A stretch of DNA of 56,969 nucleotides, taken from the IMG/VR virus record IMGVR_UViG_2740892231_000011, positions 1-56,969 of that record, one strand, 5' to 3'. This stretch comes from a virus (lineage: Duplodnaviria > Heunggongvirae > Uroviricota > Caudoviricetes). The notes beneath the pieces were generated by a model that worked only from the letters and a program-made list of their open reading frames with translations, did not search any database and was not told where the DNA came from. The stretch's first letter is position 1. Every line of letters begins with the position of its first letter. A program made the position numbers and the translations under genes. Positions 40 to 47,869 of this stretch are shown one piece after another.

Positions 40-402
40 GGGGCTGATTCTGGATTCGACGGGATTTGCGAAACCCAAGGTGCATGCCGAGGGGCGGTTG
101 GCCTCGTAAAAAGCCGCAAAAAATAGTCGCAAACGACGAAAACTACGCTTTAGCAGCTTAATAACCTGCTTAGAGCCCTCTCTCCCTAGCCTCCGCTCTT
201 AGGACGGGGATCAAGAGAGGTCAAACCCAAAAGAGATCGCGTGGAAGCCCTGCCTGGGGTTGAAGCGTTAAAACTTAATCAGGCTAGTTTGTTAGTGGCG
301 TGTCCGTCCGCAGCTGGCAAGCGAATGTAAAGACTGACTAAGCATGTAGTACCGAGGATGTAGGAATTTCGGACGCGGGTTCAACTCCCGCCAGCTCCAC
401 CA
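40..402 (+). ncRNA. ssrA: tmRNA (transfer-messenger RNA, SsrA)
   Basis: 363 nt starting GGGGCTGATTCTGGATTCGAC and ending GGTTCAACTCCCGCCAGCTCCACCA; internal tag frame GCAAACGACGAAAACTACGCTTTAGCAGCTTAA (ANDENYALAA*) at about 129..161. Matches E. coli ssrA from memory. Confidence 0.95.
372..402. repeat. att core at ssrA 3' end (left copy of 31-bp direct repeat)
   Basis: GACGCGGGTTCAACTCCCGCCAGCTCCACCA recurs identically at 41255..41285; typical 3'-end tRNA/tmRNA attachment duplication. Confidence 0.75.
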
Positions 403-532
403 ATCATGATTGGACGGTGTAAGGACAACACCAACAAAAACAGGATGTTAGCAGTCTCTGCAGGACACCGACCAGACGGTGAGGGGACAAAAAAGGATAC
501 GCAAAGGAGCCGCGGCTCTTTAGTTACATGAA

Positions 533-556
533 AGCCCGCTAATGCGGGCTTTTTTT
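533..556 (+). terminator. rho-independent terminator-like hairpin downstream of ssrA
   Basis: AGCCCGC-TAAT-GCGGGCT stem-loop followed by TTTTTTT. Confidence 0.5.
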
Positions 557-570
557 ATGGGATAAGACAT

Positions 571-1491
571 ATGAACCAACTGCAAGAAATCATTCAGATA
601 CTAAGTACTGGTGATGAAGGCACAACAAATGCTCTCATAAAAACGAAGATCCTTCTTTTCTCTATCGGGAAAAAGGAGCTTGCTGCATGGGTAAATCATG
701 AGATAAACGGTTATCCTGATTCAGTTTCCCTTCCAGATTATAGAATTGTTGGCACAAGAATTCTTGCAGATCTGAACAACGGCGTTCGCCTATATAGAGC
801 TTTTCCGTTACCGATTGGCTATCTAAGTGAAGATGACTATGAAGATGCTACAACCAGTAATGTGAGGCTTTCAATCAGTCAAATCGAAGAACTAGTAACC
901 AATGCTGGTGATAGCCATGCTCTTCAGCAGCCAATTCCTTTAGATTACGCGTTAGTTAAGTACTGCAAAGGTATCGATAAAGGCTATGAGTTAACACGCT
1001 GTTATAAAGAGATCGCACTACATAACTTTACTTCCATCTTAACTCAGGTCAGGTCACGGCTACTTGATTTTATACTTGAACTTTCTGATCAAGTTTCTGA
1101 AATACCAGATGAGAAAAACATGACAGAAAAACTCAAAAATATCGACACGTCTTCATTATTCCATAACTCAATTTTTGGAGACAATACTGTCATAAACTTC
1201 GGAAATGAAAACTCATTTTCTGTGAATAACCACGTCGTCAAAAACAACACTGAGTCATTAAAAGAGTTTCTCTCAGCTCAGGGGTTCCCTAAATCTGATG
1301 TTAACGATTTAGAAATTGCTATTGGTGAAGATGGCCCGATAGCTAACAAACGTGGTGAATATGGTCAATCTGTTAGTAAATGGTTGGCAAATATTGCGAG
1401 TAAAGCAGCCCATGGTACTTTGGGCATAGGAATAGCTGCTGCAACTCAAGCAGCTACAGCGGCTCTGAAAAAATACTACGGTCTATCATAA
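571..1491 (+). CDS. hypothetical protein (306 aa); candidate defence/abortive-infection cargo with C-terminal small-residue hydrophobic segment
   Basis: Intact ORF in an AT-rich block just inside the prophage end; C-terminus HGTLGIGIAAATQAATAAL resembles a glycine-zipper-type membrane segment; no motif I can assign to a known family. Confidence 0.55.
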   Translation: MNQLQEIIQILSTGDEGTTNALIKTKILLFSIGKKELAAWVNHEINGYPDSVSLPDYRIVGTRILADLNNGVRLYRAFPLPIGYLSEDDYEDATTSNVRLSISQIEELVTNAGDSHALQQPIPLDYALVKYCKGIDKGYELTRCYKEIALHNFTSILTQVRSRLLDFILELSDQVSEIPDEKNMTEKLKNIDTSSLFHNSIFGDNTVINFGNENSFSVNNHVVKNNTESLKEFLSAQGFPKSDVNDLEIAIGEDGPIANKRGEYGQSVSKWLANIASKAAHGTLGIGIAAATQAATAALKKYYGLS

Positions 1492-1540
1492 CCATCATGG
1501 GGTGTCGGGGGTCGGAGGTTCAAATCCTCTCGTGCGACCA
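1492..1540 (+). other. tRNA-Pro 3'-half remnant (non-functional, att-like)
   Basis: CCATCATGGGGTGTCGGGGGTCGGAGGTTCAAATCCTCTCGTGCGACCA matches the anticodon-stem to CCA portion of E. coli tRNA-Pro (proL-type, from memory) with one base missing in the acceptor arm; the 5' half is absent. Confidence 0.7.
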
Positions 1541-1555
1541 AAAATCCCTTAAGAA

Positions 1556-1580
1556 CCAGCCTATTATGGCTGGTTTTTTT
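1556..1580 (+). terminator. terminator-like hairpin
   Basis: CCAGCC-TATTAT-GGCTGG followed by a T-run. Confidence 0.45.
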
Positions 1581-2324
1581 ATGATTGTTTTTTATGCGGA
1601 GAAATACCGGGGAATAATTGGGGTAAAACACCTTTAGGCTATTCACTTAGCCTACCACCATCAAAATCTTTCCGAATGTATCCATCTCTTTTTTCTTATG
1701 CAGCTAAAACGAAGTCTTGATACTGTTTATTTACACAGATAAGAATAATACTGTCTACAAACGCAGTACAAAAGAAGTGTTATGCGTATTGAGATCTCCA
1801 TAACCAAAGACAAAATGACCAAATGCCAAATGGCGCTGTGGACGCGTTAAAGGAAGAGTTAACCCAACACATTGGCAAGCGTTATGACGATGTGGAGATG
1901 ATCGTAAAAGCCACCAGCAACGATAGTTTTTCAGTTAGACATACTGCAGATAAAGATTGAGCTAAAACTTTCGTTCAGGAAACTCTGAATGATACCTGAG
2001 AGTCTACTGAAGAGTTGTTTGTTCACTAGTTAGCACGTAGGAAATCATTCAATACTCGCACTATCGGAAGTTCACCAGCCAGTCGTAGCACGTCCTTGCA
2101 AACGACGTGCCTACAATTTCAATCACCTCTCACCATCAGTTCTATCAATAATAATTAAACAGCGCCTAGACAAAATAAATAACAACAAGTCAACAACCTC
2201 GACAGGATGCCGATGGGATGATGAAGAGATAAGAAAGAATAACCAGTAAAGCCCTAAAACGTCAGCGTTCAGACGCGTTTTTTACTTAACCGGTAACAAA
2301 TACGTTGTATCATAGCAGAATAAA

Positions 2325-4274
2325 ATGATTGTTCTAAATCAGATTAACTCCTCACTTTTGTACAATGTCGCTTACAGGTATACCATGAAATCCGAGACGC
2401 TAACTGTCCAACAACTTTTTCAAGACCGCCGACAATACTGTGTTCCATTCTATCAACGTGCCTATGTATGGACTCAGCAAGACCAATGGTCAGCTCTACT
2501 GGAGGATATCCTAGAGAAAGCACAATCCCGGCTCTCGGGTACAAAACCAACTCCCCATTTCCTTGGTGCGGTTGTACTGGAACCTCAATCAAAAAAAGGA
2601 TTATTAGGTGTAGATTCCATACATATTATTGATGGTCAGCAACGATTGACCACTCTTCAATATGTTCTGGCATCCATCCGATTAGCATTACGTGCTACGG
2701 ATCTTTCCAGCTTAGAGGCTCTCATTTCGCCTTGCCTGAAAAACTCAAACGAAGACACAATGCGAAATAAAGAAGTAGAACGCTTCAAACTGTGGCCAAC
2801 TTTTCGGGATCAAACTCATTTTATTCAAAGTTTTAATGTTGAAAATATTGACGATCTCCGGGACGTATTCTCTGATAGTTTCACGCAGCATGGTACGTTG
2901 CGTAAGCGTTTTAATCACCCGCCATCACTAGAAGCATTATGTTTTTTTACTAAAGCCTTTATAAAATGGATTAAAATAGAAAACCACTCACCACAAGAAA
3001 ATGCTGTAGCTCTAATTGAGGCTGTCTTAACAGATCTGAAACTGGTAAGCATATTTCTCGAAGCTGAAGATGATGCCCAAATAATTTTTGAAACATTAAA
3101 TGGGCGAGGGGCGGAACTTCATGCTACGGATCTTATTCGCAACTATATCTTTATGTGCGCAGAGCATGAAAATATAAATGCTATTGAATTATATGAAAAT
3201 GAGTGGAAGAGCTTTGAAGATAAATACTGGTCGGAAAAACAACGCCGTGGACGTATTAATAAACCACGCATGGAGTGGCTAGTACATGCGACATTGCAAT
3301 CAGAAAGGCAGCGTGAAATTGATCTGTCTCGCCTTTACAATGAGTATCGTGATTATGTAAGTAAGGACTTGTCTTCACAACGAGCAGATCTGCAAGTAAA
3401 GCGCCTCAAACAATATGCATTACAATATAAAGAATTGGTTGATGGTTTTGGCACAACCCCCATCTCACACTTTGGATATCGCATCGCAGACTATGATGTG
3501 ACGACACTTTATCCGCTTGCTTTGTTCATTTCGATAGCTAACATCGCTGATGATGAGAAAGCAGCCATGTATAATGATCTTGTCTCCTACGTAGTACGAA
3601 GAGCCGTATGTGGCCTGACGCCAAAGAATTACAACAATGTATTTATGAATGTATTGCGGCACTTGGCTAAAACGGAAATTTCCAGTGTTGAGTTACGTAA
3701 TATCCTCAATAACTTAAATGGCGAAGCCTCACGTTGGCCTGGTGACTCAGAATTTCTCAACGCTTGCATCAATGCTCCACTTTATCCTGGCAGGCTCGAC
3801 GCACCGAAAATGCGCTCAATGTTAACGGAACTTGAAAGAGAACTTTGTCGCCAAGTGAAGACCGAAAAGCCTGATGTTCCAAATCTTTCTAATCTCGATA
3901 TCGATCATCTTATGCCCCAAAGTTGGTATTCCTGTTGGCCTCTCGAAAATGGTCGTATGGTGACAAATTCAGATGCTACGGTATTGAACCAAATTGTTCT
4001 GTCTGGAACCGATCTTACCCCTGAACAGCTACTGGTAAGGAAACGGCAACAAGCGATAGCTACTTTGGGAAATCTAACTTTGCTTAACCTTAGCGTAAAC
4101 CGTTCTGTTCAGAATGCTGTATTTCTGAAAAAACGTGATGCTCTCATCGTCCACACCAATCTACGACTGAACATTCCACTTATAGTTAAGGATAAATGGG
4201 ATGAGGATGAAATCCTGGAGCGGGGTAAAAAGTTGGGGGAAATTGCATTGAAAGTATGGCCAAAACACGATTAA
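2325..4274 (+). CDS. GmrSD-like type IV (modification-dependent) restriction endonuclease, DUF262 + DUF1524 architecture
   Basis: N-terminal YQRAYVW and DGQQR motifs (DUF262/ParB-like NTPase); C-terminal DIDHLMPQSW His-Me finger motif (DUF1524). True start may be the internal Met at about 2385 (MKSETLTV). Confidence 0.8.
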   Translation: MIVLNQINSSLLYNVAYRYTMKSETLTVQQLFQDRRQYCVPFYQRAYVWTQQDQWSALLEDILEKAQSRLSGTKPTPHFLGAVVLEPQSKKGLLGVDSIHIIDGQQRLTTLQYVLASIRLALRATDLSSLEALISPCLKNSNEDTMRNKEVERFKLWPTFRDQTHFIQSFNVENIDDLRDVFSDSFTQHGTLRKRFNHPPSLEALCFFTKAFIKWIKIENHSPQENAVALIEAVLTDLKLVSIFLEAEDDAQIIFETLNGRGAELHATDLIRNYIFMCAEHENINAIELYENEWKSFEDKYWSEKQRRGRINKPRMEWLVHATLQSERQREIDLSRLYNEYRDYVSKDLSSQRADLQVKRLKQYALQYKELVDGFGTTPISHFGYRIADYDVTTLYPLALFISIANIADDEKAAMYNDLVSYVVRRAVCGLTPKNYNNVFMNVLRHLAKTEISSVELRNILNNLNGEASRWPGDSEFLNACINAPLYPGRLDAPKMRSMLTELERELCRQVKTEKPDVPNLSNLDIDHLMPQSWYSCWPLENGRMVTNSDATVLNQIVLSGTDLTPEQLLVRKRQQAIATLGNLTLLNLSVNRSVQNAVFLKKRDALIVHTNLRLNIPLIVKDKWDEDEILERGKKLGEIALKVWPKHD

Positions 4275-4295
4275 TGCAATTAATAAAATGATTAT

Positions 4296-4321
4296 AGCGG
4301 CCTTACCTTAGTAAGGCCGCT
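4296..4321. terminator. 11-bp stem hairpin after the GmrSD-like gene (putative terminator)
   Basis: AGCGGCCTTAC-CTTA-GTAAGGCCGCT perfect inverted repeat; no clean T-run on the + strand. Confidence 0.35.
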
Positions 4322-4524
4322 ACTCACTATTAAATACTTTAATTTGCATCAAGAACAGCAATGTCAGCCCTAGGTCTCGGACTTTGTACCGCTTATCTTG
4401 TTTTCAAAAATCAGCTCGCATCCTGCACAGTTCAGCGCATTACGTTGTAGATCTGTGTTCTGGTCATTTGTTGATACGCGTACATAGCCAATAAGCATGG
4501 TAGATCCCCCTGACAAAAGCAGGA

Positions 4525-4938
4525 ATGATGCCATTTGCTCGTTATTTCTGCATTTTCATAAACGTTGGTTTGGGAGAAGCGGCAAAACGGGATGTGGGGA
4601 CAGGGGAAAATCAGATACCGGACATGGCCTCTTTTGCCAGTGGTGATGGATGGATGAAATTACCCAACGGGAAAATCCTGCAATATGGTCGTGGTGCGGT
4701 TACGCCGACATTATCGACGCAAACAATGAGAATTACATTCAGCATCCCTTTCCCCAAAAAAGCGGACTGCGCCATGCTTACTCATTCTGGTGATGGCGGT
4801 GCGCCTTTAGGCGCTGGGCGAGGGTTCGTGATGACTGCAGAAGGCCCAACGTTAACCGGCTTTAATTCTGCTTACAGAACGTCATCAACCAGCGACACGG
4901 TATCGATGAATTACAGTTGGTGGGCTGTTGGTGAGTAA
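4525..4938 (+). CDS. orphan tail-fibre variable C-terminal segment (S'v-like)
   Basis: Tail-fibre tip-like sequence, convergent with the main fibre gene; only 7 in-frame codons upstream before a stop, so no constant part is attached. Confidence 0.45.
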   Translation: MMPFARYFCIFINVGLGEAAKRDVGTGENQIPDMASFASGDGWMKLPNGKILQYGRGAVTPTLSTQTMRITFSIPFPKKADCAMLTHSGDGGAPLGAGRGFVMTAEGPTLTGFNSAYRTSSTSDTVSMNYSWWAVGE

Positions 4939-4949
4939 TTTTATTCAGG

Positions 4950-5402
4950 GTGATTTATATGAACGAATATGTTTATAGCGCAAGGCATAATGCTTTTTTC
5001 CCTGTGGATATGATTGATAAATATAAATCAGAGGGATGGGATTTATCAGATGCTAAGGAAGTGAATCAAAATATTATCAGTGAGTTTATGGCTGAACCGC
5101 CACAAGGAAAGATCCGTATTGCCGGAAATGATGGGCTGCCTGCGTGGGCAGATATTCCTCCACCCACGCATGAAGAGCTTATTGAAATTACTGAATCAGA
5201 AAGACAGCTATTAATTAACCAGGCCAACGAATACATGAACAGTAAACAATGGCCCGGTAAAGCCGCTATTGGTCGTCTGAAAGGTGACGAACTGGCGCAA
5301 TATAATTTGTGGCTGGATTATCTGGACGCACTGGAGCTGGTCGATACTTCCGGTGCGCCAGATATTGAATGGCCTACGCCTCCGACAGTTCAGGCCAGAT
5401 GA
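4950..5402 (+). CDS. tail fibre assembly protein (Tfa, alternative copy)
   Basis: 150 aa with Tfa-like C-terminus (LWLDYLDALELVDTSGAPDIEWPTPP); paired with the orphan fibre segment. Confidence 0.7.
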   Translation: MIYMNEYVYSARHNAFFPVDMIDKYKSEGWDLSDAKEVNQNIISEFMAEPPQGKIRIAGNDGLPAWADIPPPTHEELIEITESERQLLINQANEYMNSKQWPGKAAIGRLKGDELAQYNLWLDYLDALELVDTSGAPDIEWPTPPTVQAR

Positions 5403-5976
5403 CATCCGGCGCGGTGCTGGTATCTGTTGCCGTCACCGCGTCAATGTAATCCAGCACAGCGTTAAGGCGGGTTGTTTCTGCCTGCGTCAGTTTACGTCCG
5501 GCCTGCAATTTCAGCTGAATCAGACTGATGGAGGCCATTGCAGTATCAATCAGCGACTGGCGCTGTGCTTCTGCTGCATCTACTGCTGCGCCGTGCTGTG
5601 CCTCGGTATCCGTCACCCATTTCTCACCATCCCATTTATCGTATGGCGTTAACGGGGCGATAGTGGTTGTATTATCAGGGTAATCACCCGGAGCTGTGAT
5701 TTCTTTTGATTCCCCTGTTTCGGTGCTAAAAACGATTTCACCGCGATGGTCTGGCATATATTCCCATGATTTTAAATCTGCTGAACGGCAGATAGTATAA
5801 CCAGCCTTATATGTACCAGGAGCATCTAAACAGGAATACGCCGGAATACCGACACCCACAACAAGATATTCGGTTGATGTGGAAAGATATTCCTTCGTCT
5901 CAGCATCAAAATTATAAACGGTAATGTTTCCTGCCTTTGTAGTAATGAGTTCGCTATTTAATACGGCTTTATTCAT
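5374..5976 (-). CDS. tail fibre assembly protein (Tfa)
   Basis: 200 aa; C-terminus LNAVLDYIDAVTATDTSTAPDVIWPE is Tfa-like; immediately downstream of the tail fibre gene. Confidence 0.7.
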   Translation of the reverse strand: MNKAVLNSELITTKAGNITVYNFDAETKEYLSTSTEYLVVGVGIPAYSCLDAPGTYKAGYTICRSADLKSWEYMPDHRGEIVFSTETGESKEITAPGDYPDNTTTIAPLTPYDKWDGEKWVTDTEAQHGAAVDAAEAQRQSLIDTAMASISLIQLKLQAGRKLTQAETTRLNAVLDYIDAVTATDTSTAPDVIWPELSEA

Positions 5977-6701
5977 CAGGCTGCCCTCACGATATAGTTA
6001 AATGCGACGTTGCGCGGCCGGGTTTCAGAACCACCAACCGATACCGTAGAAATTGAATTTGCCGTAATAAGTTCCCCGAAAGCATCAGCCGTAACTACGA
6101 ACCGACCTCCCGTTGGATCAAAACCTGTTAGCGCATAGTACTTGTCAAACCAGTGCCCATGAGAAGCAAATAAATGGTCTTGAGATGTCAACAAACCACG
6201 AGAGGAATCCACCCCGCGCCCATCATCCCATCCACGAATAAATTCACCGCGTAAATCAGGCAATTTATTTGTCGGGTAAGCCTTTGCCAGTTCCGGGTAT
6301 TCTTCAGCAGAAAAAGCCGCACCATTGCATTTCAACCAGCCTGTTGGCGGAGTGGCTGAAGGCCACGGAACAGGCACCCCAACAGGTAATGCTGAGCCTT
6401 CTCCCAAACCAAGGTTTTCGAGAGCCGTTTTCACCGTGCCATCCGATTTGATATCGCCAAACGGATTCTTGCGGCTTAACAGCAGCGCACGAAGCGCGGT
6501 AAGCAGCTGATCATGCCGCCCCTTCTCCAGGCTGGCACCGGATGCCTCCACAACACTGCAAAGTTCCTCCTGCAACATGTCAAAGTAGTCATCATCCAGA
6601 TCGGTGGCAGGTGTGCCGGTCTGGGGGTTACCACGGGTAAAACCGTTCTTACCCGCGCCGAACTTATCCTTCTGCGCGGTTTTCGTATCTATACGATGCA
6701 T
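5976..6701 (-). CDS. tail fibre protein (Mu S-like)
   Basis: 241 aa; C-terminus ...[17 protein letters not shown] typical of Mu/e14-type fibre tips; follows the baseplate genes. Confidence 0.75.
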
Positions 6702-37564: not shown

Positions 37565-37611
37565 TTATCAGGACTGGAATTTGATATTACTGCCCGTGTG
37601 CAGCGGGCTAA

Positions 37612-37830
37612 GTGGAGAAACATATGCTGAACCTCGATTGTGTTCCTATCTCAACTTATTGCAAAGAAACTGGCGAAACTCCTGAAGCAATAAACAAACG
37701 TGTACAGCGCGGTGTTTGGCGTGAAGGTGTTCAGGTTTTAAAGGTTGAAGGCGTTAAGGAGAGGTGGATTGATCTTAGTGAGGTTGCAAAATGGGCCAGA
37801 CAAAACTGCTCAAACTACCGCGCGGCGTAA
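37612..37830 (+). CDS. excisionase-like protein
   Basis: Small basic protein directly upstream of and overlapping the integrase start. Confidence 0.45.
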   Translation: MEKHMLNLDCVPISTYCKETGETPEAINKRVQRGVWREGVQVLKVEGVKERWIDLSEVAKWARQNCSNYRAA

Positions 37831-38987
37831 CAATCAGGAAACACCGCCAGGGCGAAACGATCAATATAACTTTCACCTACAAAGGAGTTAAATGTCGTGA
37901 GCCTCTTTCCAATCTGGAAGTAACACCAAAGAACATTAAATACGCCGAGCGCACACTCGGCGAAATTCATAATAAGATCGAAAGGGGAACATTCATTTAT
38001 GCGGAATATTTTCCCCGTTCTGCTCGTTTGAAAATTTTTGGTAATGCTGCTGCAGGCAAAACGGTAAAAATGTACCTGGACGAATATCTTGAAATCTGCG
38101 AAACGAGAAAACTCTCACCCTCAACGATTGGTGGTTATAAAAAATGCCGTAGTGCGTTAGCCTCACTCCACATTTGCCCTGCAAGTGAATTAACACCAGC
38201 AATCCTGAAAGCGTGGATTCAAAGTCAGAAAACGACCTTAAAAACAATTCGCAACCAGTTATCTTTCCTGCGGTCAGCACTTGATGAAGCCGTAACCGAT
38301 GGGGTACTTCAAATTAACCCCGTATCGTTGGTAACTGCTTCGCGCTACCAAAGTGATAAGTCAGAAGCAGAAAGTTGCTACGTGGTTGATCCGCTATCAC
38401 CAACAGAAGTTGATGCATTACTAGCAGCAGCCGGAAACAAACAATGGGAGAATCTGTTCCGGTTCGCTATACATACAGGCCTGCGTAGTTCTGAATTATG
38501 TGCCCTTAGATGGCGTGATATCGACTTTGTTGGAAAAACTGCCCATGTCCAGAACGCAAGTGTTGTCGGTGTTATCAAAGGAACAAAGACAAAAGCCGGT
38601 ACTCGTAAAGTTGAACTGACAGAAGAGGCAATGTTGGCGCTGATAAACCAGAAGCCATTTACATTCATGAAGGATGCTACTGTCTTTGAAGATCCAAAGA
38701 CAAACAAACCGTGGGCCAGCGCCGATGCGATAAGGAAAAAAGCGTGGATACCAACCTTGCGTAAAGCTGGTATCCGGTACCGTAACCCATATCAGACCAG
38801 GCATACATTCGCCACCAGCCATATCAGCCGTGGTGCGAACCTGTTCTGGCTTGCAGCTCAAATGGGGCATAAAGGGCCGGAAATGCTTTTCAGGCATTAT
38901 GGTTCGTATCTCGTAGACTATGATGGCAAGACAGCTTGTAAGGACCAAGTATCAAAAAATCCGGAGAACATGAAAATTGAGAAGTAA
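37791..38987 (+). CDS. int: tyrosine integrase (lambda-type with arm-binding N-terminus)
   Basis: 398 aa; C-terminal catalytic region with R...HTFATSHI...LGH...Y-type motifs; positioned near the att repeat at 41255. Confidence 0.85.
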   Translation: MGQTKLLKLPRGVTIRKHRQGETINITFTYKGVKCREPLSNLEVTPKNIKYAERTLGEIHNKIERGTFIYAEYFPRSARLKIFGNAAAGKTVKMYLDEYLEICETRKLSPSTIGGYKKCRSALASLHICPASELTPAILKAWIQSQKTTLKTIRNQLSFLRSALDEAVTDGVLQINPVSLVTASRYQSDKSEAESCYVVDPLSPTEVDALLAAAGNKQWENLFRFAIHTGLRSSELCALRWRDIDFVGKTAHVQNASVVGVIKGTKTKAGTRKVELTEEAMLALINQKPFTFMKDATVFEDPKTNKPWASADAIRKKAWIPTLRKAGIRYRNPYQTRHTFATSHISRGANLFWLAAQMGHKGPEMLFRHYGSYLVDYDGKTACKDQVSKNPENMKIEK

Positions 38988-39177: not shown

Positions 39178-40443
39178 ATGTTGATTGAGTTTACAGTACA
39201 AAACTATAAATCTATTTCAGAGAAACAAACACTGAGTTTAGTTGCATCAAAACTTAACGATTTGCCTAATAATCTGTTCAGTATTGATGAACCTAAATCT
39301 CTTGAATTGCTTAAAAGTGCTGTGATTTATGGCCCTAATGCTGCCGGAAAATCAAACATTATTAACGCTATTACAACTATGGCTGAACTTATTGTCCGGT
39401 CTGCTACAGGTTATAAAAGTGGTGATAAACTTGATATCACGCCTTTTAGACTAGACTCAAAGAAGATTAATCAACCATCTGAATTTGAAATTAACTTTAT
39501 TTCCGAAGGCATCAGATACCAGTATGGTTTTTCTGCAACAGAAGATTTTATTCACGACGAATGGTTATTTGCATTCCCCAAAGGCAGACCACAAAAATGG
39601 TTTTTACGTCTATGGGATGAAGAAAAACAAACCCATGAATGGGAGTTGGGGCCATCGTTGACAGGAGAAAAACAAACATGGTTGAAATCAACTAGGCCTA
39701 ATGCGCTCTTTCTTTCTACAGCGGTACAATTAAACAGTGTACAACTAAAACCTGTATACGATTGGTTTTATTACAAAGTTAAATTTACTGAATTAACAGG
39801 TTGGGATAGTGATTACAGTGCAAAGCAATGCTTAAATGATAAGAAAGATGAGATTCTCAATTTTTTAAAAGCTGCCGATGTAGGTATTGATGACATTCAT
39901 GTAACAAAGGAAAAATTCAATCCCAATGCTCTTCCTGATGATATGCCTGCAGCCATCAAGGAACTAGTGATTAAGAATATGCAAGGCAAGGAAGAATATG
40001 TCATTAAAACACTTCATAATAATGAGGCTGGAGAGCCAATTCCATTCGATTTAAAAGATGAATCGCATGGAACTAGAAAAATCTTTAGTTTCGCGGAACC
40101 CTTATCACATTCACTCGAGACAGGAAACATCCTGTTTATTGATGAATTAAATGATAACTTACACCCCAAATTAGTTGAGTTTATTGTAGGTTTGTTTCAC
40201 GATAAAAATATCAATAAGAATGGTGCCCAGTTAATCTTTACAACTCATGAGACGTCTATTTTAAATCAAGATGTTTTCAGACGAGATCAGATTTGGTTTG
40301 TAGAAAAAGACAATTCAAAGCAAACAAATCTTTTCCCACTTACGGATTTTAGTCCAAGAAAAGGAAGGGAGAATTTAGAAGCTTCTTATCTTGACGGTAG
40401 ATATGGGGCTTTACCACTCATTGGGAAATGGGAGAGATATTAA
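39178..40443 (+). CDS. AAA/ABC-type ATPase, AbiLi / RloA-like
   Basis: Walker A GPNAAGKSN near the N-terminus; Walker B-like ILFIDELNDNLHP; AT-rich; start of the next gene overlaps its stop. Confidence 0.7.
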   Translation: MLIEFTVQNYKSISEKQTLSLVASKLNDLPNNLFSIDEPKSLELLKSAVIYGPNAAGKSNIINAITTMAELIVRSATGYKSGDKLDITPFRLDSKKINQPSEFEINFISEGIRYQYGFSATEDFIHDEWLFAFPKGRPQKWFLRLWDEEKQTHEWELGPSLTGEKQTWLKSTRPNALFLSTAVQLNSVQLKPVYDWFYYKVKFTELTGWDSDYSAKQCLNDKKDEILNFLKAADVGIDDIHVTKEKFNPNALPDDMPAAIKELVIKNMQGKEEYVIKTLHNNEAGEPIPFDLKDESHGTRKIFSFAEPLSHSLETGNILFIDELNDNLHPKLVEFIVGLFHDKNINKNGAQLIFTTHETSILNQDVFRRDQIWFVEKDNSKQTNLFPLTDFSPRKGRENLEASYLDGRYGALPLIGKWERY

Positions 40444-41129
40444 TGGGAAGCGAAGATCTGTTCAAAAAAAGAAAGGCTCGGCGTAATAATGAATTCAAAC
40501 GAGTTAGTAAAGCACGAGCTCAAATGAAGAAAATTCTCATCGTCTGTGAGGGAGAGAAGACTGAGCCCGCATATTTTACAGATTTTATAAAACATTGCCG
40601 TATAAGCACGGCAAGCATAGTTGAGATTTCTGGAGAGTGCGGCTCAAGCCCTATGAATGTGGTATCTTGGGCAAAAGAAAAATATAATACGGAAAAGAAA
40701 AGGAGCGACCCTTATGATAAGGTTTATTGTGTCTTTGATAGAGACGCTCACCCTAACTATGATGAAGCTCTTAGCAGGATTAATTCCTTAAATCCAAAAG
40801 GGATTTTTGTTGCTATAACTTCCATACCATGTTTCGAGTACTGGCTGATACTACATTTTGGATACACCCGAAAATCATTTTCACCTCAGAAAGGCAAAAG
40901 TGAAGGCGCACAAATGCTAGCTGAGTTAAAAAAATACATGCCAGATTATGAGAAAAAGGCATCAGGTGTATTTAATAAATTGCAAGATCGGCTCGATACG
41001 GCATTAATCAATGCTAAAAGAGTCGAAGATGCCGCCAAAAAAGACGGGTCGATAAATCCTTCAACTAAAGTTGGCGCTTTGATTACAGATCTAATTAACA
41101 TTCGTGATGACTTTGAAAATGAGAAGTAA
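40428..41129 (+). CDS. RloB-like protein (AbiLii-like partner)
   Basis: KILIVCEGEKTEPAYF motif characteristic of RloB-like proteins as I recall them; operonic with the ATPase. Confidence 0.6.
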   Translation: MGEILMGSEDLFKKRKARRNNEFKRVSKARAQMKKILIVCEGEKTEPAYFTDFIKHCRISTASIVEISGECGSSPMNVVSWAKEKYNTEKKRSDPYDKVYCVFDRDAHPNYDEALSRINSLNPKGIFVAITSIPCFEYWLILHFGYTRKSFSPQKGKSEGAQMLAELKKYMPDYEKKASGVFNKLQDRLDTALINAKRVEDAAKKDGSINPSTKVGALITDLINIRDDFENEK

Positions 41130-41254
41130 AAATAACATGTCATGATGTAGCGACGGCAGCATGTTTAAGTTCAAATGGCAAAGTGTACGCGAAGTATACG
41201 CGAATCAAAAACAATAGAAAAAACGTATATTTTACAAAAGATTATATAAATTTT

Positions 41255-41285
41255 GACGCGGGTTCAACTCCCGCCAGCTCCACCA
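41255..41285. repeat. att core (right copy): attR of prophage 1 / attL of the IntA-type element
   Basis: 31-bp exact copy of the ssrA 3' end GACGCGGGTTCAACTCCCGCCAGCTCCACCA. Confidence 0.8.
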
Positions 41286-41408: not shown

Positions 41409-42680
41409 ATGGGACCCACTAAGAAGGGTCCAAAAACCGAGGGTCCCAAAATGGCAAAAATCGCTAAGAAGCTCACTGACACTGAAATCAAAAGCACCAA
41501 GCCAGCCGATAAAGAAATCAACTTGTTTGACGGTGATGGTCTGATTCTACGAATCGCTCCTTTGGCGAAAGGAGGCAAGAAAAATTGGTATTTCAGGTAT
41601 GCAGTACCAGTGAGCAAGAAAAGAACCAAAATGAGCCTTGGGACATATCCTCACCTTACCCTTGCAAGAGCCAGAGCCTTACGTGATGAATATCTCTCCT
41701 TTCTGGCAAATGGTGTTGATCCCCAAATCCATAACAACGATAAGGCGAAGGCATTAAAGAGTGCTACTGAGCACACTCTCCAAGCCGTAGCGCGGAAATG
41801 GTTAGATGAGAAGGTAAAGACATCAGGTATCTCACAAGACCATGCAGCAGACATCTGGCGCAGCTTAGAGAGAAATGTCTTTCCCGGTCTGGGTAATGTC
41901 CCTATCAATGAGATCCGACCTAAGCTCTTAAAACAACACCTTGATCCTATTGAGCAACGAGGCGTATTGGAAACTCTACGCCGTATCATTTCACGTCTGA
42001 ATGAAATCTTCCGGTGGGCAGCTACTGAAGAACTTATTGAGTTCAACCCGGCTGACAACCTTGGTCAAAGATTCAGTAAACCAAAAAAGCAAAATATGCC
42101 TGCCCTTCCCCCAAGCGAATTGCCAAGGTTTATGGAATCTTTGACGAATGCGTCAATCCGGTTGGAAACACGTATGCTAATTGAATGGCAATTGTTGACA
42201 TGGGTTCGTCCGGGTGAAGCCGTTCGCGCAAGGTGGTCTGATATTGATACAACCAACAGCATTTGGAACATTCCTGCTGATTTCATGAAAATGAAAAAGC
42301 TTCACAAAGTTCCTTTGAGTAAAGAAGCTTTGCGCATCCTTGAATTAATGAAATCAATAAGTGGGCATAGAGAATGGGTTTTCCCCAGCATAAAAGCGCC
42401 TCTTAATCATATGCATGAACAAACAGCCAACGCAGCTATCATCCGAATGGGGTTCGGAGGCGAGCTTGTAGCTCACGGTATGCGTTCTATTGCACGAACA
42501 GCGGCAGAGGAGTCTGGTAAATTCAGAGCTGAAGTTCTTGAGGCAGCGCTTGCCCACTCGAAAAAAGATGAAATTATCGCAGCATACAATCGTGCAGAAT
42601 ATCTGATAGAGCGACAGAGTTTGATGCAATGGTGGAGTGATTACGTTCAAGCTCAAAGATCAAATGCTCTGGTAGCCTAA
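41409..42680 (+). CDS. tyrosine integrase, IntA/P4 type (ssrA-specific family)
   Basis: N-terminus KLTDTEIKSTKP...LFDGDGLILRI resembles CP4-57 IntA; C-terminal catalytic domain; likely start at MAKIAKK near 41451; adjacent to the att repeat. Confidence 0.85.
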   Translation: MGPTKKGPKTEGPKMAKIAKKLTDTEIKSTKPADKEINLFDGDGLILRIAPLAKGGKKNWYFRYAVPVSKKRTKMSLGTYPHLTLARARALRDEYLSFLANGVDPQIHNNDKAKALKSATEHTLQAVARKWLDEKVKTSGISQDHAADIWRSLERNVFPGLGNVPINEIRPKLLKQHLDPIEQRGVLETLRRIISRLNEIFRWAATEELIEFNPADNLGQRFSKPKKQNMPALPPSELPRFMESLTNASIRLETRMLIEWQLLTWVRPGEAVRARWSDIDTTNSIWNIPADFMKMKKLHKVPLSKEALRILELMKSISGHREWVFPSIKAPLNHMHEQTANAAIIRMGFGGELVAHGMRSIARTAAEESGKFRAEVLEAALAHSKKDEIIAAYNRAEYLIERQSLMQWWSDYVQAQRSNALVA

Positions 42681-42718
42681 GTATCAGAATAGCTAATATA
42701 ATCCTGAAGGTAAAGAAA

Positions 42719-43135
42719 ATGGAAACCCTATTCAAAGTTTTTGAAAAATTTAGTTCCAGACCACTTTTTTTTATTTTTTTCGGACTCTCACTTTGTGAAT
42801 TTTTTCAGAAACAATCTGTTCTGATGAATCCATCAGCAGATAACATCGCGAAATTATTCGCAGCCATGATATTAGTTGTTTTTTTTACTTGGGGATTTGA
42901 ATGGCTAATCTTCAAGTTCAATGTAAACCTTGAACCTCATGATCAAGGCGATATTGGACCAACAATTGGAACGGCTACTTTAGCTGTATACTTAGTTTAT
43001 GCCTTTCACTTTCTCAGTGAAAATCCTGAAGCATTAAATTTAAAGTTATTAACTAACTCTGGCTTTATATACAGCACAACTCTATTATTATTCTCATTAG
43101 AATGCATGAAGCTTAGAAGACTTAAACAAAAATAA
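42719..43135 (+). CDS. hypothetical polytopic membrane protein
   Basis: 138 aa with about 4 hydrophobic helices; AT-rich. Confidence 0.5.
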   Translation: METLFKVFEKFSSRPLFFIFFGLSLCEFFQKQSVLMNPSADNIAKLFAAMILVVFFTWGFEWLIFKFNVNLEPHDQGDIGPTIGTATLAVYLVYAFHFLSENPEALNLKLLTNSGFIYSTTLLLFSLECMKLRRLKQK

Positions 43136-43355
43136 ACAACATCATTGTGATGATAAATATAAAATAGGCATGGCGAAAAAAAATCACCACGCCTAAAATA
43201 TAATAATTATGGTAGCATCATTGATACATAATCCACACCAATCCTTGAGCTATACTGAGACGCTATAGCCTGATATCTTTCTGCATAACCAGTTCTCAGT
43301 TGAGATTTAAGTTTGAGTCGGACAGGAACATTTTGCACGTTGCCATCCATATTAC

Positions 43356-44972
43356 TTAAAAACACGGCAGAAATAATATTTTTTCTTCGCCATCAACTGT
43401 TGTTCCATGATTCAACACCACCATATAATCAACAACAGGAAGCGTTTTATCCCCTTCGAAAATAGAGAGATATTTTCTTTGATTTTTATGCATTACATAT
43501 ATATATTTCGAATGTTCAGCAAATGGCAATGCTTTACTCTGACTGGCGTTAAAAAGCTCCAGAACTTTAATGAGCCTGTGCGGACTTAATCTTACATGGT
43601 GAGGGTCGTTACCCTGAGTAGGAACCAAATCACATGCCGCAGATACACATAAATACCATTTGTTCGACTCTGTATCAAAGAAAATAGTGCCAGTAGAAAT
43701 ATGACCATCTTCAAAATTCTTTGAAGACAAATTCATATTTAAAGCATGATACATTTCGTGATAAGTATCATTATTTGATGGCAGATCCATTTTTGAAGAG
43801 CAATATTGGAGCAATGCAGCAACTCCGCTGTTAGCGTATTCATTTGAATAGCTATCAAAAACACTTTTGATAAATTCATCCAGCGTATTATTATTTTTAA
43901 GTCTTTGATAAAGCTCTTCTGATAAATTACCAAATACAAAGTCAATATTTCTACATCTAATATCAGGCGAGTCTGATTTTAATATCTCATTTAACCACGC
44001 AGCTTGACCGTAATGATCGTTAGCCAAATGATTTACAAAAGATAAAGCCTCAGCTTCGATTGCATTCTGAATTTCAGATTTTATTAACTGATAATAAGAT
44101 GGTTTCCATTCAATGAGAGAATCATTGAGAGTTTGCCAAATCCTATCTCCATCGTTTTCATGATCATCTTGAACCTTATGAAATAGGGAGACAAAGATAT
44201 TACCACATTGAATCCATTTTACTCCGCTTTCATCACCCCGAATGACATTGCCAGATGTGTTGCTAGAAATAATTGCATTTCTAGACACAGCATATTCTGC
44301 AATCATTTTTGCAATGAAGTTTTTATCCTTTTGATCCTCCAACACAGCATCATCATGTATTAATCTTTTAATTCTTCTACAAGGCTTACTGTCTTTAATA
44401 TAGGCTATTGTTTCATCTCTTGTGAGAGCTTTATTACCATTATCATTTAAGTTCGGTAATACAACGTCTTCCCAATAACTTTGGACATCTTCATTATCGT
44501 AGTCAATGATCAAGCTGTTGATATCCAGAGCACCTTTGAGAGTCGATGATATCTGCATCCAAACCGTTTCTAAATTCTCTCTAGTATATATTACAATCAT
44601 ATTTAAATGATCGGAGTCTTTCAAATCTTGTAATAGTTTAAGTGTTTTATCAGGTGCATTATTATCAAGATGATAATCTACAATAATAAGATCTGATTTC
44701 CTAATCCGATCCACATCGAAATTAACAGAACCATTGTCAACATCACAAATCATATTTTTAGATTGAAAAAAGCTCTCAAGAGTAGCGGCTCGTTTAGATG
44801 AGTCAATTTTGTTGTAGTCTAAATCAACTTCGTTATTCAACGCCCTGATTGATTCAGAATACGTCAGAAAATCGTCATCAATCATGACAACGGAACGAAT
44901 TGCATTTTCGCAGAAAGTTTTCTGGACAAGAGAATTATAATTTGCCACTGTCATATTAGAACTCCACTCCAT
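43356..44972 (-). CDS. receiver (REC)-like domain protein fused to an unrecognised C-terminal domain (candidate effector)
   Basis: N-terminal VVMIDDDF ... DLIIVDYHLD ... MIVIYT resembles CheY-like receiver motifs (acidic pocket, phospho-Asp, conserved Thr); about 380 aa beyond with no known motif; coupled to the upstream kinase ORF. Confidence 0.6.
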   Translation of the reverse strand: MEWSSNMTVANYNSLVQKTFCENAIRSVVMIDDDFLTYSESIRALNNEVDLDYNKIDSSKRAATLESFFQSKNMICDVDNGSVNFDVDRIRKSDLIIVDYHLDNNAPDKTLKLLQDLKDSDHLNMIVIYTRENLETVWMQISSTLKGALDINSLIIDYDNEDVQSYWEDVVLPNLNDNGNKALTRDETIAYIKDSKPCRRIKRLIHDDAVLEDQKDKNFIAKMIAEYAVSRNAIISSNTSGNVIRGDESGVKWIQCGNIFVSLFHKVQDDHENDGDRIWQTLNDSLIEWKPSYYQLIKSEIQNAIEAEALSFVNHLANDHYGQAAWLNEILKSDSPDIRCRNIDFVFGNLSEELYQRLKNNNTLDEFIKSVFDSYSNEYANSGVAALLQYCSSKMDLPSNNDTYHEMYHALNMNLSSKNFEDGHISTGTIFFDTESNKWYLCVSAACDLVPTQGNDPHHVRLSPHRLIKVLELFNASQSKALPFAEHSKYIYVMHKNQRKYLSIFEGDKTLPVVDYMVVLNHGTTVDGEEKILFLPCF

Positions 44973-46674
44973 TGAACTGGATCACAAAATTAGCGCCATC
45001 TTTTATTAAATAGTTATCGCCTTCATCAGGTTCTGAATACCATATTTTATGATGTGCAACAGCAAGGTTTTCTCGACATAGATACAGACCTACCCCATGT
45101 CCATTTGCTCTTTTGCTATAAAATAGTTCAAATAGTCGCGGGATATCATCGGTATCAATTGCCGGACCAGAATTTGCTATGATAACCAAAGAATTCACAA
45201 AACCAATCTTTATGAGCCTATTATTTGACAGACTGACCCAATACATTGCATTGTTGATAATATTAGTAAAAACAGGATAGATCCTTGATGGTATATCTGT
45301 TATTGCGATTTGCTTAAACTCTTCACTAAATTCAATAGTTATTCGTTGCCGTTCGAAACGCTCCCCAAAGAACTTCAGGACATAATCCATGATATTTTTT
45401 CCAGTTATTCTCTGCCTGGATTGATAACCTGATATTTTCAAAGGTGATAAGAAACGTATTTGTTGAGTAAGCGATCTGTGAGCATTTAACGCCAATGAAA
45501 AACCAGGGTGTTCTTTTACAGAAGTAGGAAGAGAGTTTAGTCCTCTGGTTACCATAGAATCCATTTCTTCAAGTTCATGAGATATTATCTCAACACTAAT
45601 ACCTAACTGTGCAAGCGCGTTTAAACTTTTAGCTTTTTCTTCAAAATATGAGCGTTCTTCTTCAGATAATGAGAATGCTGAATCTAAGTTTATACCTTCA
45701 AATAATCTATCGAGACCTTTTATTATTGATTGATATTTGAAAGTTAGGGTATCAACTGACTCAACATATAAACTATCGAGCAAATTAAACACATTTTCAA
45801 TTTGTGAATCATTATCTATTGAATCAACAACTGATATAGTTTTAGCATAATAATCACTTCGATCAACCTTTATTTCATCGGCCCATTTTTTTAAAAGAGA
45901 ATGTATCTTCTCCTCTATCGTGTTATTAAACTTAGTTAGTTTAGAATTAATAATACCTTGATTTTTTTCAAGGTGATTTTTCGCTGCCAATGAAGGCTCA
46001 AGTTTATTTAATTCAGAATCAAGTTTATTAATTGCTAACTTCATTTGTAGAATATACGCAGAGAACTCATTAAATTTATCTCTGTAGTCTCTATATTTCT
46101 CTTCATACATTCCAAGTTTTGGAGGTTTGATAGGCGTTTTAATTTCACTGCGCAACGCATCTAAGTTTGTAAGATCACTGTCTATAATTTTAAGATAGTT
46201 TAAATCTAACGAACCATCAGTTTTATCAAGCTTAGTTTTCAGCCTTTTAACAGCCTCCAAGGAAGCATCAAGAACTGGTGTCTGATTCTTCAAAGCTTCT
46301 GAAAAACTTTTTTGTGTTGATTTTCGAGCTTGTTGTTGAGCAGATTTTCTTAACTCTTTTTCACGCTTAACTTGTTCTAAAAGCTCTTTACGGTCATCAG
46401 AACGTGAACCAAAAAATCTATCAGCAAGTTCAGTTAACAAATTAGATATAATAGTTTTCAGTTCTCTTGCAGCCTGGTTTCTTATGAATCCCTCTCTCCC
46501 CGACTTATCTTTCAGCTCTTTATTACTGGATTGAGTAATTCCAATATAACCAAAAATCCTTCTATTAGACCAATAATATCGCCCTGCATTCCATGAACGT
46601 CTTTCTTCTATCTGGAAGAAATCATTATCTACTCGACCATAAGGTAATACTCTCAAGCTATCCCTAAAAATCAT
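44956..46674 (-). CDS. histidine kinase (5'-truncated by IS insertion)
   Basis: C-terminal H-box-like ISHELEEM, N-box FTNIINNAMYW and G-box GHGVGLYL; the frame stays open upstream to about 46800 where it meets the IS end, so the N-terminal sensor region is missing. Confidence 0.65.
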   Translation of the reverse strand: MIFRDSLRVLPYGRVDNDFFQIEERRSWNAGRYYWSNRRIFGYIGITQSSNKELKDKSGREGFIRNQAARELKTIISNLLTELADRFFGSRSDDRKELLEQVKREKELRKSAQQQARKSTQKSFSEALKNQTPVLDASLEAVKRLKTKLDKTDGSLDLNYLKIIDSDLTNLDALRSEIKTPIKPPKLGMYEEKYRDYRDKFNEFSAYILQMKLAINKLDSELNKLEPSLAAKNHLEKNQGIINSKLTKFNNTIEEKIHSLLKKWADEIKVDRSDYYAKTISVVDSIDNDSQIENVFNLLDSLYVESVDTLTFKYQSIIKGLDRLFEGINLDSAFSLSEEERSYFEEKAKSLNALAQLGISVEIISHELEEMDSMVTRGLNSLPTSVKEHPGFSLALNAHRSLTQQIRFLSPLKISGYQSRQRITGKNIMDYVLKFFGERFERQRITIEFSEEFKQIAITDIPSRIYPVFTNIINNAMYWVSLSNNRLIKIGFVNSLVIIANSGPAIDTDDIPRLFELFYSKRANGHGVGLYLCRENLAVAHHKIWYSEPDEGDNYLIKDGANFVIQFNGVEF

Positions 46675-46795
46675 TAGTCCTGCATACTTTTTGGCCTTAA
46701 GATCAAAGTGGGAATGTTCACGTTCAGTATGTGATGTATTTTGTGAAAGGAATTCAAACGTTCCTATCTGAAGCTCAAATGGGCCGACCCCTGCG

Positions 46796-46863
46796 TGATC
46801 CTACCCACGTAATATGGACACAGGCCTAAGCGAGGTTCTTGTTTTCAAATTGTTCCGGACTGA
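46796..46863 (+). mobile_element. IS3-family insertion sequence, left terminal end (rest hidden in gap)
   Basis: TGATCCTACCCACGTAATATGGACACAGGCCTAAGCGAG resembles IS3-group termini; the same end recurs at the window end. Confidence 0.6.
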
Positions 46864-46873
46864 NNNNNNNNNN
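46864..46873. other. assembly gap (10 N)
   Basis: Run of N immediately after the IS end; probably a collapsed repeat, so adjacency of the flanks is not proven. Confidence 0.95.
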
Positions 46874-47131
46874 TGAAAAGGATTGCCGTCCTTTCGCAGC
46901 CTCTGACCACCAACGATAGCAAGAGTATCGAGGCAGCTATGAGAAATCATATCACACACCCGCAAGGGCGGGACTCGCACAACCTGAATAAATTCACCTG
47001 GCGCTTTATGCAGTGCCTGACAGACAGCATTGCAATATTCACCGTTACCGCTGCCACTGAGCACGAAGCACGCGCCCAGCTGCCGCACGCACATCTTATT
47101 TTTGTCGCCCGTATCCGTCAGGAGGTGACTC

Positions 47132-47317
47132 ATGCTTAAAACCTTCCGCGTCTTTTCCCGTGCTGTTAACAAGCGTGGCTATACCGTTGGCATCACGCAG
47201 AACGTGAAGGCCGAAAACGTCCAGGCTGCAATCAGCACAGTAATTAACAAATCAGCTAAAGCCGGTTTATCCGGCGTAATTATCCACGCCGTTCATGAAA
47301 TTAAGGGGGTGCAGTAA
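47132..47317 (+). CDS. hypothetical small protein
   Basis: 61 aa ORF with GGAGG RBS, first of a co-directional small-gene set. Confidence 0.35.
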   Translation: MLKTFRVFSRAVNKRGYTVGITQNVKAENVQAAISTVINKSAKAGLSGVIIHAVHEIKGVQ

Positions 47318-47520
47318 TGCAGGAAATGACACTGGCAGAAGCCTCACTGAAAGCGCAACAGATCGAAGTAATCAGCCGCATGATTGAACGCATGATTGAA
47401 CGCAACCACGAAGAAATAGACGACCATGACCTTTCTGTTATTGCGGGACTTATCAAACAACTTTCCAGCAATGTGGCGGTGTGGTTAATGACGGAGGAAG
47501 AAAAACGCGGCGAACAATAA
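47317..47520 (+). CDS. hypothetical small protein
   Basis: 67 aa, start overlapping the upstream stop. Confidence 0.4.
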   Translation: MQEMTLAEASLKAQQIEVISRMIERMIERNHEEIDDHDLSVIAGLIKQLSSNVAVWLMTEEEKRGEQ

Positions 47521-47577
47521 CGGCTAAAAATAAACGGGAAATAAATATCAAGACGACTCCTTCAGGAGGCTAATTAC

Positions 47578-47838
47578 ATGAAATCGAAAATATCTGGCTT
47601 AACTGCCAGTAGCAAAACTCACCCCGAATTTATGTGCGGGGATATTTATCGCGATAAGTACGGCGGCATCGTGACGATTATCAGCACGAGAGAACGACGC
47701 ATCACCTACCGCCGTGAAGGGTATGACTATGACTGCGTGATGCCCCTGTATCAGTTCAGTCGTGATTTTTCCCTGATGCAGGCCGTGCCACGTGGTAAGC
47801 CAGCAATACAAAAGCAGAGGCGAACATCCGAAAGATGA
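47578..47838 (+). CDS. hypothetical small protein
   Basis: 86 aa with GGAGG RBS. Confidence 0.4.
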   Translation: MKSKISGLTASSKTHPEFMCGDIYRDKYGGIVTIISTRERRITYRREGYDYDCVMPLYQFSRDFSLMQAVPRGKPAIQKQRRTSER

Positions 47839-47869
47839 AAAACATGATTAACGTATTCAGGAGCAAAAA

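Follow-up and report, generated by a model that had tools for sequence, protein, structure and literature searches.

The 49 bases at positions 1492-1540 of the window, the 56,969-nucleotide stretch of DNA analysed here, are a non-functional 3' half of the proL gene and not a tRNA gene. We consider it very probable that they are a relic proL attachment core, left behind when the integration module of a prophage lineage changed from one directed at proL to one directed at ssrA. The fragment appears to be the phage side (attP) of a vestigial att site that once served an integrase system directed at tRNA-Pro. It stands at the end of a gene for a protein with an AbiTii domain, of which a general account has been given (PMC3710099).

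The fragment reads CCATCATGGGGTGTCGGGGGTCGGAGGTTCAAATCCTCTCGTGCGACCA. Its source is the tRNA-Pro(GGG) gene located downstream of yejM in E. coli K-12 MG1655, which is proL; this gene reads ...CCGTCATGGGGTGTCGGGGGTCGGAGGTTCAAATCCTCTCGTGCCGACCA and its anticodon is reported by ARAGORN as ggg. When aligned with proL positions 27-76 the fragment is identical at 48 of 50 positions, and the tRNA part alone gives E = 5e-14 by megablast against 28 Gb of E. coli genomes. There is a single substitution, G to A at window position 1494 in the 5' strand of the anticodon stem, and a single deletion, of one C in the acceptor 3' strand (CGTGCCG has become CGTGCG). The initial annotation had noticed about 49 nucleotides of the 3' part of a tRNA-Pro gene directly after the stop of a 306-aa gene, with one base missing; the match is real, and the missing C was seen correctly, but the description overlooked the change at 1494. 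Alignment to proL, proK and proM identifies the first of these as the source to the exclusion of the other two; a sequence first taken for proK proved to be the tRNA-Pro(GGG) gene beside yejM, that is, proL. The TAA stop codon of the 306-aa ORF (571-1491) abuts the fragment without a gap, and its final base, A1491, also agrees with proL. A 20-mer from the core occurs once in the window against an expectation of zero from shuffled sequences, and no second copy was found in the window when up to three mismatches were allowed, so that there is no attL/attR pair. The block of identity begins where those of the free phages Eeyore and Flotzy and of the attR in APEC O78 begin, with the addition of a CCGT-like half-site. 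An 'attL-like' origin, with the extra CCATC as bacterial proL sequence, was considered at first, but an unconstrained pattern scan returned many phage cores with CCGT, CCAT or CTGA half-sites, so that these bases do not tell a bacterial from a phage origin.

The initial annotation left it to tRNA finders to establish whether the fragment is functional, and they agree that no complete tRNA is present. ARAGORN reported only the tmRNA in the window, with no tRNA at 1492-1540; Rfam at the gathering score likewise reported only the tmRNA, and the Rfam tRNA model RF00005 had no match in 1380-1680 even at E <= 10. Rfam matches obtained at a permissive threshold were at chance level and driven by the neighbouring terminator. 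The fragment holds proL positions 27-76 only, the 5' half being absent and the acceptor strand carrying the deletion. It is virtually inconceivable that the resemblance is due to chance, given the number of identical positions and the E value, or that a functional tRNA-Pro gene has been overlooked, given the missing 5' half and the two negative searches.

Table 1. Features of the window that bear on the proL fragment and its carrier.
Feature	Position	Strand	Basis
ssrA (tmRNA)	40..402	+	ARAGORN; Rfam RF00023, 295.8 bits
Active att identity block (attL side), last 31 nt of ssrA	372-402	+	Direct repeat
Phage arm of ssrA-type attP	403..555	+	89% identical to phage LLS (153 nt) directly after its annotated tmRNA pseudogene/attP
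AbiTii-domain protein, 306 aa	571..1491	+	Pfam PF18864, E=3e-33; PADLOC AbiTii, E=4e-33
Orphaned proL core (very probable relic), positions 27-76	1492..1540	+	48/50 match
Intrinsic terminator, probably from old proL-type attP, now 3' of AbiTii gene	1551..1585	+	Terminator scan, RNA fold
Probable remnant P' arm of proL-type attP	1586..1640	+	98% identical to arm beside intact proL
Excisionase-like small ORF (xis), start of exchanged block	37612..37830	+	ORF list; homology break at 37622
Tyrosine integrase, putatively of ssrA-specific type	37791..38987	+	Pfam Arm-DNA-bind_2 and Phage_integrase
AbiL-like defence pair (AAA_21 ATPase and RloB-like protein)	39178..41129	+	Pfam; PADLOC AbiLi E=4e-101, AbiLii E=3e-29
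Displaced ssrA 3' copy, prophage attR	41255..41285	+	Repeat of 371-402 at 41254-41285, 1 mismatch

The fragment lies within an element integrated at ssrA, as the initial annotation had proposed (Table 1). An intact tmRNA gene is found at one end, a repeat of its 3' portion at the other, and an integrase gene beside that repeat. The ORFs between the two ssrA cores include genes for a tail fibre, a tail-fibre assembly protein and a LexA/CI-like (S24) repressor, and a DinI-like pseudogene is annotated in a genome identical to the window; because of these genes the element, 403-41285, is taken to be a prophage. Its integrase has 86% amino acid identity to that of phage LLS, window positions 37578-38932 have 76% nucleotide identity to the LLS xis-int region, and the LLS record annotates a tmRNA (ssrA) attP. 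The specificity of the window integrase for ssrA is thus predicted from its position and from the LLS annotation. The ssrA-type arm, which ends in a hairpin and T-run (about 530-556), forms the left border of a variable cargo slot, and homology with the loci Z0117EC0054, L016 and L024 ends at 555-559. The AbiTii gene, whose product RefSeq names 'AbiTii domain-containing protein', is cargo between the ssrA core and the proL core. The AbiL pair is located between the integrase gene and the attR core of ssrA, which places defence cargo on both sides of the active att core.

To the right of the fragment, the terminator scan detected an 11-bp stem and a T-run at 1551-1578, and the RNA fold of 1485-1585 gave z = -3.9; this terminator is conserved in Eeyore, in Flotzy and in the proL-integrated prophages. 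The P' arm has two GGGGWANAA repeats (1609-1617 and 1620-1628), 11 nt apart, and relatives carry three. These repeats are putative arm-type integrase sites. The motif occurs six times in the whole window against 3.45 expected, which is not significant, and it is the adjacency of the two copies together with their conservation in relatives that is suggestive.

The ssrA locus is a tandem array because a second integrase, of the P4 type (41409-42680), follows the repeat. The second island extends from 41409 to 50008 and includes, on the minus strand, genes for a HEF_HK/HATPase protein and a Response_reg_2 protein (43356-46674), followed by a gene for a DUF927 protein (47870-50008); in appearance it is a P4-like satellite with a conflict system. 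A boundary between tandem islands at ssrA was considered as the origin of the fragment and discarded: the fragment is derived from proL and not from ssrA, and the real internal ssrA repeat is at 41255-41285. A longer tandem array is found in E. coli HCP5S3_I4 (L002 5975-6000), where the AbiTii gene follows an internal ssrA 3' fragment preceded by genes for a SMEK-domain protein, an AAA ATPase and an S8 peptidase, and where the AbiTii prophage does not adjoin the intact ssrA gene. Downstream of the proL core in the window there is a gene for a GmrSD-type type IV restriction enzyme (DUF262/DUF1524; 2325-4274, plus strand; PADLOC mREase_IV, 1410 bits), for which the RefSeq start corresponds to 2385. 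The DinI-like pseudogene (about 1782-1999) precedes it, and an invertase remnant (about 4376-4498) comes after it.

The DNA that follows the fragment is that of a phage found elsewhere at proL. Compared with the DNA downstream of intact proL in APEC O78, window positions 1491-2222 are 98.6% identical and positions 2218-4627 are 98.3% identical; the DinI-like pseudogene, the GmrSD-type gene, the invertase remnant and the tail-fibre genes all recur there. The arm from 1541 on, comprising the terminator and the repeats, shares 98% identity with its counterpart at intact proL, and its identity to the attP arms of Eeyore and Flotzy is 81-82%. In these free phages the same core, terminator and GGGGAA-repeat arm lie about 140 nt downstream of a gene for a 395-aa integrase, and because of that position the core is taken to be their attP. 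The Eeyore and Flotzy integrases are 76-77% identical to the integrase in APEC O78 and unrelated to that of the window, which gave no hit at E<1e-3 with the proL-type enzymes of Eeyore, Flotzy and APEC O78. When three proL-type integrases were used as tblastn queries none was found in the window, the only matches being to two unrelated recombinases at E >= 8e-4. The P arm is absent too, with the AbiTii gene ending at the base immediately before the core. The fragment therefore has the identity block and a homologous flanking arm of a proL att site, and is without a cognate integrase and a P arm. At least 80% of window 1480-1640 is present in 252 of 5,426 complete E. coli genomes; among the best 60 of these 252 matches, 44 lie on an annotated tRNA-Pro, 15 have the AbiTii/ssrA arrangement and one has no annotated feature. 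Because the right flank is a phage P' arm and not bacterial DNA, it is the backbone of the prophage now at ssrA that has the proL ancestry. The suggestion in the initial annotation that the fragment is a fossil att site therefore stands as regards a vestigial proL site that has lost its integrase, but not as regards the footprint of a separate island.

Phage-supplied sequence resembling a 5' tRNA half was seen at related sites. RefSeq annotates a 78-nt 'tRNA-Pro' at the attR in APEC O78 (L009 17521-17598), which ARAGORN rejects, and the situation is similar in O25b:H4 (L140, about 46420-46500). The 5' half of the APEC O78 feature is supplied by the phage, and its first 7 nt are still able to pair with the acceptor 3' strand. 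Many phage P arms, including that of the Z0117EC0054 type at ssrA, have such a degenerate pseudo-5' half (GGCACATAGCAGCCC...) ahead of the core.

Homology between the backbone of the window prophage and the proL-integrated prophages of APEC O78 (L009) and O25b:H4 (L140) takes in the early region, ends at 37622, the start of xis, and resumes at 1491; therefore one block has been exchanged. We propose that the prophage is one of a group of temperate phages of E. coli with a yfdP/yfdQ/yfdR early region, akin to the proL prophages and to Eeyore, Flotzy and LLS, and that within this group the xis-int-attP block would be exchangeable. In the lineage of the window a proL-specific block would have been replaced by an ssrA-specific one, which in the order of the circular phage map would consist of xis, int, the AbiL pair, the ssrA core, the 153-nt arm and the AbiTii gene. 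The displaced block would have held xis, int, cargo and the P arm, and the core, terminator and P' arm would have stayed in place. The joints of such a swap would lie at 37622/37623 and at 1491/1492, the latter coinciding exactly with the 5' boundary of the old proL core. That core would extend from the anticodon stem-loop to the CCA end and would still be followed by its terminator and by the first part of its P' arm. With the loss of the P arm and the integrase the old core would no longer be able to direct integration. We infer that the direction was from proL to ssrA, and not the reverse, from a core that stands without P arm and integrase rather than from a dated phylogeny.

The arrangement in the window is a recurrent one. 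Our scan of viral contigs yielded 122 dereplicated phage-borne proL cores, a sample biased to intact cores because the collection scans needed exact core matches. In at least 21 dereplicated phage contexts a proL core lies less than 3 kb from the 3' end of a different tRNA or tmRNA gene; this is an E. coli-type ssrA in 13 of them, the others having one ssrA-like variant and ends that we take, by their likeness to E. coli sequences, to be tRNA-Leu-like and tRNA-Ser-like. The stretch between the end of the ssrA arm (555) and the start of the core (1492) behaves as a cargo slot, in which AbiTii, membrane proteins and other genes were seen; there are three genes in Z0117EC0054, one of them for a GIY-YIG protein, and a further occupant is a candidate TIR-like protein, judged by the look of its sequence. 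The distance to the nearest upstream ORF on the same strand was 61-170 nt for 35 of 106 non-native cores, 0-12 nt for 34 and 13-60 nt for five. The class at 61-170 nt fits the proL-type integrases, which we observed about 130-160 nt upstream of their cores. In the flush class the cargo comes from ten unrelated families whose ORFs stop 0-11 nt short of the core (IMG/VR loci L010-L139), and such endings are far tidier than random illegitimate joints would give. As the 4-nt half-site preceding CATGGGG, most of the flush cases have C[CT][GA][TA], and the sites beside integrases have mostly G[TCG]G[TA]. Three tandem proL-like cores, oriented on the plus strand, were seen in one metagenomic locus (L039, about 1500-6200; IMG/VR 3300029641_000059): one is decayed, one carries a lesion (CGTACCGACAA) and one is perfect, and each follows a cargo ORF (252 aa, 622 aa). 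Two copies of a SRAP-like gene lie between these cores, an arrangement that resembles accretion at the core.

Orphan cores appear to be under relaxed constraint, and the old core seems to be decaying. Different sublineages have different lesions: the type in the window is without one C, the CFT073 type has CCA changed to CAA and the Z0117EC0054 type has a T to G change. In the Ec3985 type, found in 25 genomes, the AbiTii gene is 94% identical and the core only 63%, mostly through G to A changes. Within the IMG/VR sample, none of 38 integrase-adjacent cores had a lesion in the last 12 nt, against nine of 73 cores without a detected upstream proL-type integrase (p about 0.02, a Fisher estimate); in the latter group six cores with a different tail were not counted as lesioned, since they are probably species variants of proL. 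In E. coli 3985 (L003 7089-7200) and the 24 other genomes of this type the junction of AbiTii with the core is followed by a decayed core and terminator (63% and 56% identity, respectively; 10 G to A changes), the divergence leaping from 6% to 37% exactly at the AbiTii stop codon. Helicase genes of the STM2766/STM2767 type come next, replacing the DinI and GmrSD genes.

A neutral fossil on its own does not fit every observation, the difficulty being the perfect cores that stand behind diverged AbiTii genes. AbiTii lineages L065 and L110 have only 62-63% DNA identity but share the same junction (stop codon, 4-5 nt, CATGGGG) and a core identical to proL, and the arms around these junctions are 43-85% identical. 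Such diverged lineages with a perfect core suggest recurrent recombination at the core. We found an AbiTii gene in 40 of 5,426 complete E. coli genomes, and each of the 30 places listed begins with the ssrA-type arm, from the base immediately behind the ssrA core. The initial annotation proposed to look for islands at tRNA-Pro that carry homologues of the 306-aa gene; there were none among these 30 places. Its reading, that AbiTii and the fragment are the end of a separate island once located at a tRNA-Pro gene and later carried into the ssrA element, has in its favour that AbiTii and the core have long been linked, as homologues of AbiTii down to 45% amino acid identity also end 0-7 nt before the core, and that one homologue (L031) is found near a tRNA-Leu-like end rather than ssrA. 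We nevertheless judge a separate island to be very unlikely, because the fragment is followed on its right by a phage P' arm and phage genes with no bacterial flank, because the AbiTii places listed all follow the ssrA-type arm, and because the same core and right flank occur behind quite different cargo, such as the three-gene set of Z0117EC0054. The preferred reading remains a swap of the integration module from proL to ssrA, after which the core would probably have come to supply the AbiTii gene with its 3' untranslated region and its terminator. It is probably also a short block common to proL-type phages at which recombination re-assorts left-hand integration and defence modules with right-hand backbones. 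The core would be shared with the abundant and selectively maintained attP sites of proL-type phages, so that recombination could keep re-joining left modules to fresh right backbones, either by homologous exchange over 50-90 bp or by integrase-mediated exchange at the anticodon loop.

The same observations bear on whether the core has been kept for a purpose of its own. It could be a working site at which the proL-type integrase of an incoming or co-resident phage recombines its attP with the orphan core, by docking or by cassette-like accretion, the left module of active att site and defence gene being joined to a new backbone exactly at the crossover point. Generalised, orphan proL cores would be retained docking sites where proL-type integrases, or short-homology recombination, repeatedly join an active att site plus one defence gene to new backbones. 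The beginning of the identity at position 31 (CATGGGG), beside the anticodon loop, the expected crossover point of such integrases, is consistent with this possibility, as are the drift of the 4-5 nt to the left of CATGGGG with the cargo lineage (CCAT, CCGT, CTAT, CTGA), the perfect cores behind strongly diverged AbiTii genes, the bimodal spacing of upstream ORFs (integrases at 61-170 nt, cargo at 12 nt or less) and the three tandem cores of L039, each with its cargo ORF. However, homologous recombination in the 50-90 bp of core and terminator predicts nearly the same pattern, no proL-type phage nested within an ssrA prophage was found here, the Ec3985 lineage shows a core that is free to decay, and the requirement of the scans for exact core matches favours intact cores. 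We therefore regard a docking function as unlikely, in its general form and in its details alike; if true, it would establish a cassette-like slot between two att cores, and it could explain the ten flush cargo families and the intact cores behind AbiTii genes of 62% identity. A role for the fragment as RNA, in which a tRNA-like 3' end stabilises or processes the AbiTii mRNA or a tRNA-half decoy is linked to defence, is extremely unlikely. The fragment is presumably co-transcribed with AbiTii, lying as it does between the stop codon and the terminator, and the region folds well, but the fold comes mostly from the terminator and the T-arm hairpin. Moreover, what is conserved is exact identity to proL and not covariation, the same core stands behind ten unrelated cargo families and is also used as attP beside integrases, AbiTii persists with a decayed core and terminator in 25 genomes, and there is no match to an Rfam family.

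In annotation the fragment is best labelled a vestigial attP(proL) core, and not a tRNA, a pseudogene of uncertain origin or an island boundary. Read as a relic of the swap, it dates and locates the exchange of an integration module in a prophage of CFT073-like and other E. coli strains, and it provides a concrete, testable case of temperate phages switching their integration site and keeping the rest of the genome. The paired cores, an active ssrA, tRNA-Leu-like or tRNA-Ser-like core and an orphan proL core, bracket a one-gene slot of likely anti-phage genes, among them AbiTii and the candidate TIR-like protein, and offer a simple sequence marker by which defence cargo may be located in this phage group.

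Fragments of tRNA genes that derive from integrative elements have been reviewed and are sometimes mis-annotated as tRNA genes (PMC9897764); those at the ends of integrated phages and islands, the attR or attL duplicates, are credited there to Reiter 1989 and Williams 2002. The fragment in the window resembles them in being a 3' segment that starts at the anticodon stem-loop and in its origin at the att site of a tyrosine integrase, and the likeness extends to misannotation in the case of the 78-nt 'tRNA-Pro' at the APEC O78 attR. It differs from them in that its core is not a duplicate of the element's own target, ssrA, but is present in a single copy with phage DNA on both sides and would be an attP of an earlier specificity. 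With the active attP sites of Eeyore, Flotzy and the yejM-proL prophages (APEC O78, O25b:H4) it shares the core, the terminator, the arm with GGGGAAnAA repeats and the DinI/tail-fibre neighbourhood; it differs from them in that no integrase gene lies 130-160 nt upstream, the P arm is missing and one nucleotide has been deleted from the part that would rebuild proL. In the literature searched we found general accounts only (PMC9897764, PMC3710099) and no description of an orphan proL core or of the layout in which a cargo ORF is flush against it.

Modular (mosaic) exchange of integration modules is established among lambdoid and other temperate phages. The window and its relatives conform to it in that backbones with 95-98% identity carry unrelated integrases with different targets and break sharply at the module borders. 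The window is different in that one border coincides to the base with an old att core, and in that the old core has been kept beside the new one with a one-gene slot between them. Analogies may also be drawn with the accretion of att-flanked elements, such as cis-mobilisable elements and tandem arrays at tRNA sites, and with integron cassettes, in which an ORF is followed by a recombination site. The features in common are a cargo ORF flush against the core of a recombination site and arrays of repeated cores (L039), but here the array has no dedicated integrase at its side and is made up of tRNA-derived attP halves. The likeness is one of analogy, and membership is not claimed. Set against these systems, the proL fragment is a well-known kind of feature, an ordinary relic, in a layout that is unusually tidy and recurrent.
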